Assembly (NCBI RefSeq): GCF_013122565.1
Contig: NZ_CP053258.1
Length of the DNA: 64,000 nucleotides
DNA from: Escherichia coli
GTDB lineage: Bacteria; Pseudomonadota; Gammaproteobacteria; Enterobacterales; Enterobacteriaceae
Direction: 5' to 3' (one strand)
Shown here: positions 12,548-20,485 of the stretch, piece by piece
Position numbering within the stretch: position 1 is the first letter of the stretch
Layout of the letters: each line of letters opens with the position of its first letter
Translations under genes and position numbers: made by a program
The notes under the pieces: generated by a model
Told to the model about the DNA's origin: nothing
Seen by the model: the letters and a program-made list of their open reading frames with translations, nothing else
The model's database searches: none

Positions 12548-13267
12548 TTACTCTTTATCGCCCAGCAGAACGGATTCCAGTGCGATTTTGATCATGTCGT
12601 TGAAGGTGGTCTGACGCTCAGCGGCAGTGGTCTGCTCGTGAGTGCGGATGTGGTCAGATACGGTGCAGATGGTCAGGGCTTTCGCGCCAAATTCTGCAGC
12701 GACGCCGTAGATACCAGCCGCTTCCATTTCCACGCCGAGAATGCCGTATTTTTCCATCACGTCGAACATTTCGCCGTCCGGAGAGTAGAACAGGTCAGCG
12801 GAGAACAGGTTACCAACGCGAGCATCAACGCCCAGTGCTTTAGCCGCGTCTACCGCGTTACGCACCATGTCAAAGTCAGCGATAGCCGCAAAGTCATGGT
12901 CTTTAAAACGGATGCGGTTAACTTTGGAATCGGTGCAGGCACCCATACCGATAACGACGTCGCGCAGTTTTACGTGTGGCAGAACAGCGCCACAGGAACC
13001 CACGCGGATAATTTTCTTCACGCCGAAATCGGTGATCAGTTCTTTGGTGTAGATGGAGCAGGACGGGATACCCATACCGTGACCCATTACGGAAATTTTG
13101 CGGCCTTTGTAAGTACCGGTGAAGCCCAGCATACCGCGAACGTTGTTCACTTCACGGGCATCTTCAAGGAAAGTTTCAGCAATATACTTCGCACGCAGCG
13201 GGTCGCCTGGCATCAAAACTACGTCAGCGAAATCGCCCATTTCTGCATTAATGTGTGGGGTAGCCAT
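12548..13267 (-). CDS. deoD: Purine nucleoside phosphorylase DeoD, 239 aa
   Basis: [34 protein letters not shown]. Confidence 0.95.
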
Positions 13268-13346: not shown

Positions 13347-14591
<1,245 letters not shown>

Positions 14592-14621: not shown

Positions 14622-15944
14622 TTATTCGCTGATACGGCGATAGACAGTTGGTGTGCTTTCCGGTGCTTTATCGGCAAGTTTAATTGCCGCTTTCACCGCT
14701 TTCGCCGCTTCCTGCCAGCTGTTTTCGTCTTTCGCGTGGATAACCGCCAGCGGACGCTGACCGTCTACCTGGTCGCCCAGACGCGCCATATCAGTAAAGC
14801 CGACGCTGTAATCGATGGTGTCAGATGCCTGACGACGACCGCCGCCCATTGCAACCACTGCCATCCCCAGCGCGCGGGTATCCATTTCACTGACAAAACC
14901 TTCGGTATCAGCATAGACTGCTTTCGTCAGCATCGCTGTCGGCAGATACTTCGCGTAGTTCTCAACGAAGTCGGTCGGGCCTTTTTGTGCCGCTACCATA
15001 CGACCAAAGACTTCTGCCGCTTTACCGTTGTCCAGCACCGCCTGCAATTTCGCGCGCGCTTCGGCGTCATCTTTCGCCAGTTTGCCGGAGAGCAGCATCT
15101 CCACGCACAGCGCCATCGTGACATCAAACAGACGCGGGTTACGATACTCACCCGTCAGGAACTGCACCGCTTCACGAACTTCAACCGCGTTACCTGCACT
15201 GGAGGCCAGTACCTGATTCATGTCGGTGAGCAGCGCGGTGGTGCGCACGCCAGCGCCGTTAGCCACGCCAACAATCGCTTCGGCAAGGGCTTCAGAGAGT
15301 TCGTAGGTCGGCATAAACGCGCCGCTACCCACTTTCACGTCCATCACCAGCGCGTCCAGACCTTCCGCCAGTTTCTTCGCCAGAATAGAGGCGGTGATCA
15401 GCGGGATTGAATCCACGGTTGCGGTAATATCGCGGGTCGCGTAGAAACGTTTATCCGCCGGAGCCAGTGAGCTGGTCTGGCCGATAATCGCCACGCCGAC
15501 GTCTTTAATAATTTCGCGGAAACGGTTGTCATCCGGGAAAATGTCGAAGCCAGGGATGGATTCCAGTTTGTCGAGCGTACCGCCAGTATGACCGAGGCCG
15601 CGACCGGAGATCATCGGAATATAGCCGCCGCAGGCAGCGACCATCGGCCCCAACATCAGCGAAGTCACATCGCCGACACCGCCGGTCGAGTGTTTATCAA
15701 CAATCGGGCCATTCAGATGCAGGCTTTTCCAGTCGAGAACGGTTCCTGAATCTCGCATCGCCATGGTCAGCGAGACACGCTCAGGCATTGTCATATCGTG
15801 GAAGAAAATGGTCATCGCGAGGGCGGCAATCTGCCCTTCGGAGATAGTGTTGTCGCGAATACCGTTGATAAAGAAACGAATTTCTTCATCGCTCAGCGCA
15901 TGACCATCACGTTTTTTACGAATAATTTCTTGTGCGAGAAACAA
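14622..15944 (-). CDS. deoA: Thymidine phosphorylase DeoA (TTG start, 440 aa)
   Basis: [36 protein letters not shown] verified at 15942..15944 on minus strand. Confidence 0.95.
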
Positions 15945-16021
15945 GGTAACCTCCCGTGGAAAAGAGACGAGGTAATCGGGGAACCGGATGAGCATCGCTG
16001 CGTCATCCGGCAAATCAAGCC

Positions 16022-16801
16022 TTAGTAGCTGCTGGCGCTCTTACCGTCGCCGTGGCCCAGAGCCTTCAGCAGGCTTGCCAGCAAGCTGGAAGCACCAAAG
16101 CGGTAGTGACGCGCATCAGCCCAGTCAGCACCGAACAGTTCATCGGCGATGGCGAGATATTTCTGCGCATCTTCTGCAGTACGTACGCCGCCCGCCGGTT
16201 TGAAACCAACGGTTTTTTCTACGCCCATATCACGGATCACTTCCATCATGATGCGCGCGCTTTCCGGCGTCGCGTTCACTGCTACTTTACCGGTAGAGGT
16301 TTTGATGAAGTCAGCACCCGCTTTGATGGAGATTTCAGACGCTTTACGGATCAGCGCTTCGTCTTTCAGTTCGCCGGTTTCGATGATCACTTTCAGAAGT
16401 ACATTCGCTGCCGCGCAAGCCTCTTTACAGGCTTTCACCAGGTCAAAACCAACCTGCTCGTTACCCGCCATCAGCGCGCGGTACGGGAACACAACGTCAA
16501 CTTCATCAGCACCGTAGGCGATTGCCGCACGGGTTTCTGCCAGCGCGATTTCGATGTCGTCGTTACCATGTGGGAAGTTGGTTACCGTAGCGATACGGAT
16601 TTCCGGGGTGCCCTGCTCTTTCAGGGTTTTGCGAGCAATCGGAATAAAGCGAGGATAGATACAGATAGCGGCGGTATTGCCGACCGGAGTTTTGGCCTGA
16701 TGACACAGGGCAATCACTTTCTCGTCGGTGTCGTCGTCATTCAGGGTGGTCAGGTCCATCAATTTCAGTGCACGCAGGCTGCTTGCTTTCAGATCAGTCA
16801 T
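16022..16801 (-). CDS. deoC: Deoxyribose-phosphate aldolase DeoC, 259 aa
   Basis: [33 protein letters not shown]. Confidence 0.95.
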
Positions 16802-16845
16802 TTCATTCTCCTGGCTTGTCGCCAATAAAATTCACCTTGCGAGTT

Positions 16846-16861
16846 TGTTAGTATTCTAACA
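16846..16861. promoter_or_regulatory. DeoR operator O2 (deoP2), TGTTAGAATACTAACA
   Basis: 16-bp near-palindrome about 45 bp upstream of deoC ATG; exactly 599 bp from the O1 palindrome. Confidence 0.75.
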
Positions 16862-17058
16862 TCTACTCCGCAACACACTTCGATATACATCACAATTAAG
16901 GAAATCTACTTACAAGTTTGCATCACTGTTATGCGATCTGGTTCAAATAATTCGCTTTCAAATGAATGCGTCAGTGGTGGCAAACGCATCAGGATCAAAG
17001 TGAACATCATGAAACTTCTTACAATGGCGCATCACCTTCGGCATAAAAGGAAAAGAAG

Positions 17059-18609
17059 ATGCCCACTTCTCATGAAAATGCACTGCAACAACGTTGCCAG
17101 CAAATTGTCACCAGTCCAGTGCTTAGCCCGGAGCAGAAGCGCCATTTTCTGGCACTGGAAGCAGAAAACAATCTGCCTTACCCGCAGCTTCCTGCCGAAG
17201 CCCGCCGCGCGCTGGATGAGGGTGTAATCTGCGATATGTTTGAAGGTCATGCGCCGTACAAACCGCGCTATGTCTTACCCGATTACGCCCGTTTTCTGGC
17301 GAACGGTTCCGAATGGCTGGAGCTGGAAGGCGCGAAAGATCTTGATGACGCACTCTCTCTGCTGACCATTCTTTACCACCACGTACCGTCGGTCACATCG
17401 ATGCCGGTCTACCTGGGGCAACTGGATGTGTTGCTGCAACCGTATGTTAGAATTCTAACACAAGACGAGATTGATATTCGAATAAAACGTTTCTGGCGTT
17501 ACCTCGACAGAACCCTGCCAGACGCCTTTATGCACGCCAATATCGGCCCATCTGATTCGCCCATTACCCGCGCGATCTTACGTGCAGACGCAGAGTTGAA
17601 GCAGGTTTCACCGAACCTGACCTTTATCTACGATCCTGAAATCACCCCTGATGACCTGCTGCTGGAAGTGGCGAAGAACATCTGTGAATGTAGCAAACCG
17701 CACATCGCCAACGGTCCGGTGCATGATAAAATTTTCACAAAAGGGGGCTACGGGATTGTGAGCTGTTACAACTCACTGCCGCTGGCAGGTGGTGGCAGCA
17801 CGCTGGTACGCCTTAACCTGAAAGCCATTGCCGAGCGCAGCGAATCGCTGGATGACTTCTTTACGCGCACTCTACCGCACTACTGCCAGCAGCAGATCGC
17901 CATCATCGATGCGCGGTGTGAATTCCTCTATCAACAATCACACTTCTTTGAGAATAGCTTCCTGGTGAAAGAAGGGCTGATTAACCCTGAACGTTTTGTG
18001 CCAATGTTTGGCATGTATGGGCTGGCGGAAGCGGTTAACTTGCTGTGTGAGAAAGAAGGGATTGCCGCGCGCTACGGTAAAGAAGCCGCCGCAAATGAAG
18101 TGGGTTATCGCATCAGCGCGCAACTGGCGGAGTTTGTCGCCAATACCCCCGTGAAATATGGCTGGCAAAAACGCGCCATGTTACACGCACAGTCGGGGAT
18201 CAGTTCCGATATCGGCACCACGCCGGGCGCGCGTTTGCCGTATGGCGATGAGCCAGATCCGATCACCCATCTGCAAACTGTCGCCCCGCATCATGCTTAT
18301 TATTATTCCGGCATCAGCGACATTCTGACGCTCGACGAAACCATCAAACGTAACCCGCAGGCACTGGTACAGCTTTGCCTCGGTGCCTTTAAAGCCGGAA
18401 TGCGTGAATTTACCGCCAATGTCAGCGGTAACGATCTGGTTCGCGTTACCGGTTATATGGTGCGTTTGTCGGATTTAGAAAAATATCGCGCCGAAGGTTC
18501 ACGTACCAACACCACCTGGCTGGGCGAAGAAGCCGCACGCAACACTCGTATTCTGGAACGCCAGCCGCGCGTGATAAGCCATGAACAGCAGATGCGCTTT
18601 AGTCAGTAA
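17059..18609 (+). CDS. yjjI: YjjI, glycine-radical-enzyme-like family protein (DUF3029), 516 aa
   Basis: Length and synteny, divergent from deoC and followed by activase yjjW. Confidence 0.85.
17445..17460. promoter_or_regulatory. DeoR operator O1 (deoP1), perfect palindrome TGTTAGAATTCTAACA, lying inside the annotated yjjI coding region
   Basis: Perfect 16-bp palindrome; spacing to O2 is 599 bp, as known for deoP1-deoP2. Confidence 0.75.
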
Positions 18610-19444
18610 GATTATCCCCTTCTCCTGCGTTGACGGGCCAGGCAGTCGTCTGGCTCTGTTTTTGCAGGGCTGCAATCTGCGCTGCAAAAACTGTCACAAT
18701 CCGTGGACGATGGGACGTTGCAATGACTGCGGGGAGTGCGTGCCACAGTGTCCGCATCAGGCGTTGCAGATTGTTGACGGCAAAGTGGTGTGGAACGCTG
18801 TGGTCTGCGAGCAGTGTGATACCTGCCTGAAGATGTGTCCGCAACATGCCACGCCAATGGCGCAGTCCATGAGCGTGGATGAGGTGCTTAGCCATATCCG
18901 CAAAGCAGTGCTGTTTATCGAAGGGATAACGGTAAGCGGCGGCGAAGCCACGACCCAGCTGCCGTTTGTGGTGGCGCTGTTTACTGTTATCAAAAACGAT
19001 CCGCAACTGCGCCACCTCACCTGCCTGGTGGACAGTAACGGTATGTTGAGCGAAACCGGCTGGGAAAAATTGCTCCCGGTGTGCGACGGCGCAATGCTCG
19101 ATCTCAAAGCGTGGGGGAGCGAATGTCATCAACAACTCACCGGACGCGATAATCAGCAGATTAAGCGCAGCATCTATTTGCTGGCAGAGCGCGGCAAGCT
19201 GGCGGAACTGCGTTTGCTGGTGATCCCTGGCCAGGTGGATTATTTGCAACACATCGAAGAACTGGCGGCGTTTATCAAGGGACTCGGCGATGTTCCGGTA
19301 CGCCTGAACGCGTTTCATGCCCACGGCGTGTATGGCGAGGCGCAAAGCTGGGCGAGCGCCACGCCGGAAGACGTTGAGCCGTTGGCTGATGCGTTAAAGG
19401 TGCGCGGGGTGAGCCGGTTGATATTTCCGGCGCTCTATTTGTGA
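18581..19444 (+). CDS. yjjW: Glycyl-radical enzyme activating (radical SAM) protein YjjW
   Basis: Cys-rich CxxxCxxC radical SAM and ferredoxin-like clusters ([23 protein letters not shown]); overlaps yjjI 3' end. Confidence 0.85.
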
Positions 19445-19705
19445 CATGCCGGATACGGCCTACGGTTCGGCACAGACTTGTAGGCCTGATAAGACGCGTC
19501 AAGCGTCGCATCAGGCATTGTGCGCCAACTGCCGGATGCGGCGTGAACGCCTTATCCGGCCTACGGTTCGGCACAAACCTGTAGGCATGATAAGACGCGA
19601 CAAGCGTCGCATCAGGCATTATGCGCCGACTGCCGGATGCGGCGTAAACGCCTTATCCGGCATTGAGCGCCAACTGCCGGATGCGGCGTGAACGCCTTAT
19701 CCGGC
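19445..19705. repeat. REP/BIME cluster between yjjW and yjjV
   Basis: At least four copies of ccggatgcggcgtgaacgccttatccggcctac-type REP units. Confidence 0.8.
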
Positions 19706-20485
19706 CTACGGCACGTTAAACACCGTATACGTGTTATTAAGCAACGCTTGTGCAATCTCATCCGCGGGTTCCGGGCGCAACTCGCAAAGCACGTCAAACA
19801 CCCGCGCAGCCTGTTCCGGGCGGTTAGGCTGCCCCTGAAAGCCGTTGAGCGGCATATCCGGCGCGTCGGTTTCCAGCAACAACGATGCCAGCGGTAATTT
19901 TGCGATGACATCGCGGGTTTTACTGGCGCGTGGATAGGTGATAGTACCGCCTACGCCGATTTTGTAGCCCAGCTGTACAAACCGTTCAGCCTGTTGCTGG
20001 CTACCAGAAAATCCGTGGACAACACCAGCACGCGGCAAATCGTGGCGTTTAAGATGCATCGCCAGTTTGTCGTGCGTGCGCCGTGAATGCAGGATCACCG
20101 GCAGATCGTAGCGTTTCGCCAGTTTCAGTTGTTCGTCGAGCAACCACTGCTGCCTCTCAAATTGCGGATCGTCGCCAAAGAGATCCAGGCCGATCTCTCC
20201 CACCGCCACCACCTTCGCCGGACGCCTTTCCAGCGCCTGCTGTAGCTGATCAAGAGACACATCGCTATGTTTTTCCAACATACCAGGATGCAAGCCCAAT
20301 GCGGCATACAGCGGTTGATAATTTTCCGCTAACGCCTGCACGCGGGCAAAATTTTCCGCCTCTGTCGCCGGAACAATGATCTTGCCTACGCCCGCTTGTG
20401 CCGCGCGTTGCAGGCTGGCCTCTTCATCGCCACTAAACGGCGGGAAATCAAAATGGCAGTGGGTGTCGATAAAACGGCAAATCAA
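19706..20485 (-). CDS. yjjV: TatD-family metal-dependent hydrolase/DNase YjjV
   Basis: MICRFIDTHCHFDFPPF (TatD HxH motif); synteny. Confidence 0.9.
   Translation of the reverse strand: MICRFIDTHCHFDFPPFSGDEEASLQRAAQAGVGKIIVPATEAENFARVQALAENYQPLYAALGLHPGMLEKHSDVSLDQLQQALERRPAKVVAVGEIGLDLFGDDPQFERQQWLLDEQLKLAKRYDLPVILHSRRTHDKLAMHLKRHDLPRAGVVHGFSGSQQQAERFVQLGYKIGVGGTITYPRASKTRDVIAKLPLASLLLETDAPDMPLNGFQGQPNRPEQAARVFDVLCELRPEPADEIAQALLNNTYTVFNVP

Follow-up and report, generated by a model that had tools for sequence, protein, structure and literature searches.

The deoCABD control region of Escherichia coli and its overlap with the divergent gene yjjI

Introduction

Auxiliary operators can lie within coding sequence and loop to the operator at the promoter, as do lac O2 in lacZ and gal OI in galE. 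For the deo region of Escherichia coli K-12, Valentin-Hansen, Dandanell, Hammer and colleagues reportedly described, between 1982 and 1989, the promoters deoP1 and deoP2 with the DeoR operators O1, O2 and OE; the third operator, OE, is said to have been placed upstream of O1 by Valentin-Hansen in 1986 and Dandanell in 1987. This classical work reportedly predates the annotation of yjjI, and the operators were therefore not described as coding sequence. In the literature, K-12 DeoR is a multimeric repressor that is released by deoxyribose-5-phosphate. The DeoR system has "three operator sequences" (PMC2222622), and deoP1 and deoP2, which are 599 bp apart, are locked by DeoR looping (PMC3334521); natural DNA looping spans up to about 900 bp (PMC4217526). 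A deoCABD promoter has also been placed "in an upstream gene, yjjI" (PMC6389913, 2019).

Here we analyse the corresponding region in a window of E. coli DNA, by which we mean the whole stretch of 64,000 nucleotides under study. The region is very probably the thoroughly studied one that controls the deoCABD operon through tandem promoters, with deoP1, O1 and OE inside the translated yjjI gene. Compared with the deo region of K-12 it is the same locus and nothing functional differs: O1, O2 and OE are identical, with the same 599- and 279-bp spacings and the same yjjI-deoC order. The likeness to lac and gal is that a repressor operator embedded in a translated gene cooperates by looping with a promoter-proximal operator. 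In lac and gal, however, these operators lie in the first gene of their own operon, whereas in deo a whole promoter and two operators lie in the divergent and unrelated yjjI. Because deoP1 is within a divergent gene, the deo transcript that starts there would be antisense to its host gene, and the loop would enclose the promoter of yjjI itself.

The promoter-in-yjjI layout is already known (PMC6389913), the system is textbook DeoR looping and its rediscovery adds little. What is added here, going by the literature searched, is the synonymous invariance of the embedded sites, their rare codons, the amino-acid accommodation in YjjI, the strict co-occurrence with deoC and the range of O1-O2 spacings from 567 to 612 bp.

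Results

The deo locus and its operators

Positions 16000..19500 of the window match 5423 of 5426 complete E. coli genomes at 95-99% identity, and deoC, yjjI and yjjW are annotated there. On the minus strand, deoC (16022..16801; TIGR00126, 294.7 bits) is the first gene of deoCABD. Its ATG is the complement of 16799..16801 and the first intergenic base is 16802. The genes deoA (14622..16013), deoB (13347..14570) and deoD (12548..13267) lie on the same strand; the coordinates of deoA are those of its longest open reading frame, which has a TTG start and in which the family model begins at residue 25. The gene set under control is thus deoC-deoA-deoB-deoD, all four of which match equivalog models. 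On the plus strand, yjjI (17059..18609) encodes a glycyl radical enzyme of 516 residues that belongs to the YjjI family (TIGR04040 / PF11230). It is adjoined by the gene for a dedicated radical-SAM activase of the YjjW family, yjjW (18581..19444; TIGR04041, 397 bits), which overlaps the end of yjjI. The neighbours of yjjI here also include a TatD-family hydrolase; deoR itself is not near this locus. An Rfam search of 16000..19500 at E<=1 found no known RNA element in the P1-P2 leader.

We searched for DeoR operators with the 16-bp palindromic consensus TGTTAGAA-TTCTAACA. The search returned four strand-matches, against 0.03 expected by chance, and at least four were seen in none of 100 shuffles. 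O2 (16846..16861) lies 44 bp upstream of deoC and reads TGTTAGTATTCTAACA on the plus strand and TGTTAGAATACTAACA on the minus strand, which is the deo strand, with one mismatch to the consensus. O1 (17445..17460) is the perfect palindrome TGTTAGAATTCTAACA. The two are 599 bp apart, both start-to-start and centre-to-centre (17445 minus 16846). These matches confirm two claims of an earlier note on this DNA, namely that O2 and a perfectly palindromic O1 stand at these positions with this distance between them, and that O1 lies within the yjjI reading frame as modelled from 17059. Indeed, O1 consists of the third base of yjjI codon 129 together with codons 130-134 (TA[T GTT AGA ATT CTA ACA], encoding Y V R I L T), and these codons include the rare AGA and CTA.

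The earlier note had further spoken of "both DeoR operators". O1 and O2 are both real, but the total is three, with another operator-like 16-mer, TGATAAAATTTTCACA, at 17724..17739, also in yjjI. This sequence is unique in the window and present in K-12, and it covers yjjI codons 222 (third base) to 227, at 279 bp from O1 and 878 bp from O2. We take 17724..17739 to be the position of the classical third DeoR operator OE, 279 bp beyond O1.

Promoters and other sites around the operators

On the deo strand O1 and O2 have the hexamer TAGAAT in common, such that both operators overlap predicted -10 regions. In O2 it is the -10 hexamer of deoP2 (16858->16853), as read from the sequence. In O1, where the hexamer also has TGT upstream, it forms the extended -10 of deoP1, TGT-TAGAAT (17452..17460, minus strand), likewise as read. 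Transcription from deoP1 would start near 17445 and head for deoC, on the strand antisense to yjjI. The -35/UP-like part of deoP1, which lies upstream (17473..17490, minus strand), includes the invariant ATAAAACG; this part corresponds to yjjI codons 139-144 and contains the rare codons CGA and ATA. A consensus promoter and terminator scan of 16780..17800 called neither deoP1 nor deoP2 and gave chance-level matches only; it is uninformative here, since both promoters have weak -35 elements and would be expected to escape it. The -10 and start assignments therefore rest on reading of the sequence and on the literature.

In the published account of the system, three 16-bp operators are bound by DeoR, and both promoters are shut at once when the DNA between these operators loops. 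In the window O2 lies over the predicted deoP2 -10 just upstream of deoC and O1 over the predicted extended -10 of deoP1, with OE another 279 bp up. Since deoP1, O1 and OE fall in yjjI codons 129-144 and 222-227, this DNA very probably has a dual use, as code for parts of YjjI that are variable and as the site of a deo promoter and two operators.

In an alignment of 70 intergenic regions O2 stands out as a conserved block, with variants across genera. The promoter-proximal CRP site of deoP2 (CRP-1; 16879..16894, minus strand), which reads TGTGATGTATATCGAA on the deo strand, is a further conserved block. It is centred about 40 bp upstream of the predicted P2 start and is identical to the ChIP-seq motif for the yjjI/deoC intergenic region of ETEC H10407 (PMC4287617). 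Upstream of CRP-1, another block conserved in the 70 regions (16899..16934, minus strand) presumably comprises the CytR operator and the distal CRP site of deoP2, which we assign by position only, from what is known of deoP2 architecture (PMC3454398). CRP ChIP peaks have been reported both at deoP2 and inside yjjI (PMC4287617). We considered the ChIP-seq motif in yjjI (CGTACCGTCGGTCACA, 17384..17399) as a conserved site and rejected it, as it covers codons 109-114, which are without excess synonymous constraint; the peak within yjjI may be due to weak binding or to cross-linking by way of the DeoR loop.

The gene yjjI is directly activated by FNR, and ChIP places an FNR peak about 93 bp ahead of the yjjI ATG (PMC3688515). 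An FNR-like site, CGCAT-CAGG-ATCAA (CGCATCAGGATCAA; 16985..16998, plus strand), which is probably the FNR site of yjjI, is marked by the conserved block ATCAAAGTG, with only the ATCAA half conserved. The predicted yjjI transcription start is about 41 bp downstream of the centre of this site. The putative yjjI -10, TACAAT (17020..17025, plus strand), is conserved in the 70 intergenic regions. Because of the FNR ChIP peak, and because the spacing between the FNR-like site and TACAAT fits, we infer that yjjI has a class II FNR promoter that starts near 17032. This predicted promoter lies inside the O1-O2 loop interval and faces deoP1, which would fire towards it, from about 410 bp away.

Distribution across species and stepwise origin of the sites

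From 295 confirmed relatives we kept 80 yjjI loci, ranging from Escherichia to Proteus. Among the Enterobacteriaceae, Hafnia and Edwardsiella loci, all 74 that extend far enough upstream have a divergent deoC next to yjjI; none of the four Proteus loci does. O1 is found at CDS offset 386 in 75/75 non-Proteus loci; in a tally of 75 loci that includes the window, it is perfect in 53 and has one or two changes in the rest. OE, at CDS offset 665, is identical in 63 of 75 loci, and the O1-OE distance is 279 bp in 74/74. Both operators are present in all 74 loci with divergent deoC and also in two loci with more distant YjjI proteins (L082 and L083, 66% identical). Both are missing from the four Proteus loci, from two loci that have no deo neighbour (L084 and L085) and from one that neighbours deoB-deoD with no deoC (L086). 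In L082, yjjI (66% identical to that of the window) adjoins deoCAB and carries O1, an identical OE, and O2 at 612 bp from O1; a nucleoside transporter is also part of this neighbourhood. A yjjI with 66% identity next to deoCAB thus has the sites and a yjjI without deoC has none, which argues that the sites track the deoC neighbour and not the protein.

The 599-bp O1-O2 spacing described in the earlier note is exact in the window, but it does not hold generally: it is specific to Escherichia, against 567-612 bp in other genera. As a side observation, the O1-O2 distances across loci give a hint of 11.2-bp helical phasing, with shared ancestry uncorrected.

Where O1 varies, the changes fall in the half that follows the P1 -10 on the deo strand; the -10 half keeps its sequence in all but Edwardsiella (TAAAAT). 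At the O1 codons, L084, L086 and Proteus encode V-G-[E/N/S]-L-[T/S]. The outgroup state is T GTN GGN AAT YTN ACN, which matches 10 of the 16 operator positions, and 14 are reachable by synonymous changes alone. Hafnia, Edwardsiella and L082 have GTT GGA ATT CTA ACA, which matches 15 of 16, with TTA for CTA in Edwardsiella (14 of 16). In Enterobacteriaceae codon 131 is mostly AGA and less often AAA, which corresponds to G131R/K, and it is AGA that makes the palindrome perfect. This series suggests that O1 arose stepwise, with the encoded peptide passing from V-G-N/S/E-L-T through V-G-I-L-T to V-R/K-I-L-T. At the OE codons Proteus encodes D-A-V-F-G, and the corresponding amino-acid change was probably from D-A-V-F-G to D-K-I-F-T.

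The YjjI protein and possible control of yjjIW

An AlphaFold2 model of YjjI (pLDDT 91.8) has its best PDB matches among class III ribonucleotide reductases (TM 0.65-0.75); other glycyl radical enzymes come next. We searched for homologues among 1.8 billion representative proteins and aligned 19 diverse ones. R462 and G465 of the glycyl-radical motif VRVTGY, which fits RVxG[FWY], are invariant in these 19, as are S235-C236, which include the conserved active-site cysteine.

This relationship bears on a reading that is compatible with the best explanation of the locus, namely that the embedded module also controls yjjIW, and that YjjI expression is set by the supply of deoxynucleosides as well as by FNR. 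The parts of such control would be that DeoR at O1 (about +412) and OE (about +691) blocks the elongating polymerase, that the loop traps the yjjI promoter, and that upon DeoR release transcription from deoP1 collides with, and runs antisense to, that of yjjI. The geometry is in keeping with this, as the promoters face each other about 410 bp apart and that of yjjI falls within the O1-O2 loop. So are the FNR activation of yjjI (PMC3688515), the retention of the yjjI-deoC arrangement in all 74 loci with upstream sequence, the NrdD-like fold of YjjI, and the TatD-family hydrolase and, in L082, nucleoside transporter among its neighbours. Against it, our search of the literature for an expression link found none between DeoR or deoxynucleosides and yjjI, and the mere fact that deo control DNA is trapped within yjjI could account for the conserved gene order. 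We therefore regard control of yjjIW by the module as a tentative possibility, and on balance an unlikely one.

Synonymous constraint and rare codons

The sites within yjjI are set apart from the rest of the gene by their codon usage. Relative codon entropy is 0.65 gene-wide, against 0.035 for the O1 codons 129-134, 0.011 for the OE codons 222-227 and 0.20 for the upstream block of deoP1 at codons 139-144. In permutations, O1 and OE each reach p<5e-6 and the P1 upstream block p=5.5e-5, values that overstate independence because the loci are related. Synonymous sites are otherwise saturated, with dS above 1 in comparisons with Citrobacter, Salmonella and Enterobacter; against K-12 yjjI, which is from a different E. 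coli lineage, dS for the window is about 0.03-0.04. A stretch of 12 codons holds four rare ones (AGA131, CTA133, CGA141 and ATA142), and each of AGA, CTA, CGA and ATA makes up 3-8% of its own amino-acid class in the long open reading frames of the window. The only other segment of comparably low entropy at the end of the gene is codons 507-514, which contain the yjjW ribosome-binding site and start; its constraint is explained by the overlap of yjjW with the end of yjjI. A weaker low-entropy block at codons 296-301 (17944..17961) was considered as a fourth operator and rejected, as only its left half is DeoR-like and its conservation fades in Atlantibacter and Edwardsiella.

The sites sit in parts of the protein that can vary. 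In the AlphaFold2 model O1 encodes the end of a helix and the inter-helix loop that comes next, and OE encodes a helix end and the following turn; the residues encoded by both fall in variable, indel-prone columns of the YjjI family alignment. These positions bear on the idea that the invariance of O1 and OE stems from protein-level or translational constraint on YjjI (codon choice or mRNA structure) and not from binding of DeoR or RNA polymerase. Both blocks do encode residues that are conserved within Enterobacteriaceae, as this idea would have it. The fixed codons, however, are the rarest available (AGA, CTA, CGA and ATA), and the encoded residues belong to regions in which the family varies. 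Moreover, in yjjI genes with no deoC neighbour these codons vary without restraint and specify different amino acids, and what the fixed DNA reads is the known DeoR palindrome together with a -10 hexamer. Constraint from YjjI itself is thus a very improbable source of the invariance. We infer instead that at the operator and promoter codons regulatory need dominates, and that it would have fixed synonymous sites, forced rare codons and changed amino acids.

Translation of yjjI across the sites

The earlier note had left two alternatives, that the 5' coding region of yjjI doubles as deoP1 regulatory DNA or that the true yjjI start lies downstream of O1. The first is supported, and the second refuted, by several kinds of evidence. 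YjjI matches TIGR04040 with 787.5 bits, against a curated cut-off of 498.3, and model positions 1-497 are covered by its residues 11-504. For full-length homologues as distant as about 35% identity, the alignment begins at their own N-termini, and nine residues encoded upstream of O1 (E62, R70, Y71, P74, G83, L102, Y106, G120 and D123) are invariant in the 19 homologues. A check of conservation in yjjI codons 2-128 gave majority-base frequencies of 0.90/0.93/0.61 at positions 1/2/3 over 75 orthologues, as in the rest of the gene, and dN/dS in this segment is about 0.04-0.1. By sequence comparison, O1 and OE are each flanked on either side by a coding signature and by residues conserved in the family, which indicates that yjjI is translated across the sites. 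In the AlphaFold2 model the first 130 residues are confidently built into the barrel, as helices and strands, and the fold to which the N-terminus belongs is that of an NrdD-like glycyl-radical enzyme. The start of yjjI at 17059 is therefore genuine. That the annotation is wrong and translation begins downstream of O1, leaving O1 and deoP1 in non-coding DNA, is hardly credible: some database entries do hold shorter YjjI proteins of 391-476 residues (P0161, P0228 and P0261-P0263), but the family model, the nine invariant residues before O1, the 3-periodic conservation and the confidently folded N-terminus all contradict it, the first in-frame Met past O1 is at about codon 158, and OE would stay within coding sequence.

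Discussion

The evolutionary imprint of the deo sites on yjjI is unusually clear, and the locus offers a very clean natural case in which regulatory sequence takes precedence over the choice of codons, and even of amino acids, in a host gene. The species comparison also lets one trace a plausible path by which the operator arose step by step from codons already in place.

The overlap also has a practical side. Any deletion or recoding of yjjI would inevitably affect deo regulation as well, and deletion of the whole reading frame removes deoP1, O1 and OE. Phenotypes ascribed to yjjI in genome-wide screens may thus reflect altered deo expression. If the embedded module does control yjjIW, yjjI deletion strains would be deo-regulation mutants.

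The arrangement of deoP1 and the predicted yjjI promoter, face-to-face and about 410 bp apart, resembles that of pR and pL of coliphage 186, a geometry that gives collision and antisense effects. The difference from coliphage 186 is that interference for the deoP1/yjjI pair is proposed from the layout only. It is conceivable, and in our view doubtful, that the module makes the orphan YjjI and its partner YjjW respond to deoxyribonucleosides via roadblocks, loop trapping and antisense transcription, and that YjjI has a role in anaerobic (deoxy)nucleoside or deoxyribose metabolism. The facing promoters within a repressor loop nevertheless lead to a testable hypothesis on the control of the uncharacterised YjjI.

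Operator spacing and gene order

The distance between O1, the DeoR operator within yjjI, and O2, the DeoR operator upstream of deoC, varies across the 71 loci compared (16846..17460 in the window and the orthologous positions), and the 599 bp spacing is not universal. The distances group near 568, 590, 600 and 612 bp. They give a hint of a periodicity of 11.2 bp, with a resultant length of 0.56-0.62 (p ~0.003 against random spacings, a value that ignores shared ancestry).

The L086 locus (L086:1-4428), from one metagenome-assembled Enterobacteriaceae-like genome, places yjjI divergent from deoB-deoD, with deoC and deoA missing. Both O1 and the second embedded operator, OE, are absent from its yjjI. 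This arrangement indicates that yjjI can adjoin deo genes without embedded operators.

Other candidate sites within yjjI

Synonymous sites in yjjI codons 296-301 (TTC TTT GAG AAT AGC TTC; window 17944..17961) are almost fixed across Enterobacteriaceae, with weaker invariance in Atlantibacter and Edwardsiella. On its left side this block is similar to a DeoR half-site (TTTGAGAA). A CRP ChIP-seq peak inside yjjI has been reported in ETEC and attributed to CGTACCGTCGGTCACA (PMC4287617), which falls at 17384..17399 in the window (codons 109-114). No excess synonymous constraint was found at these codons, which suggests that the peak may reflect weak binding, or indirect cross-linking through a DeoR loop near deoP1. 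On the minus strand at 17085..17097, within the deoP1-to-deoP2 leader and yjjI codons 9-13, a short hairpin precedes a T-run (GCAACGTTGTTGC AGTGCATTTT); the count of such matches equals the chance expectation.

YjjI structure and genomic neighbourhood

The predicted structure of YjjI (window 17059..18609) has its nearest counterparts in the anaerobic ribonucleotide reductases of class III, at TM 0.65-0.75 and 13-15% identity. The neighbours of yjjI function in nucleic-acid catabolism, namely deoCABD and the TatD-family hydrolase gene yjjV (19706..20485), and at the L082 locus they include a NupC-type nucleoside transporter gene. Among the public database entries P0154, P0161, P0228 and P0261-P0263 are YjjI proteins of 391-476 aa whose starts are shortened. 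One entry of this group, 574 aa long, joins YjjI and DeoC domains on a 2.9 kb contig, probably through an error of annotation or assembly.

A conserved deoC leader in relatives

Locus comparison revealed a conserved leader of ~180-200 nt, located between an O2-like operator and the deoC start, in Hafnia, Edwardsiella and the L082 relative (L072:3537-3760, L073:3514-3735, L075:3528-3720, L077:3528-3720 and L082:2598-2800, all on the minus strand). The window, like Escherichia, lacks it. No Rfam match was found for the leader of these relatives. Within it CCAAGTCCGCTCGCCAACG is invariant, and its predicted pairing partner, GTTGGAGAG, is the deoC ribosome-binding site. The leader may represent a translational control element that has not been described before.
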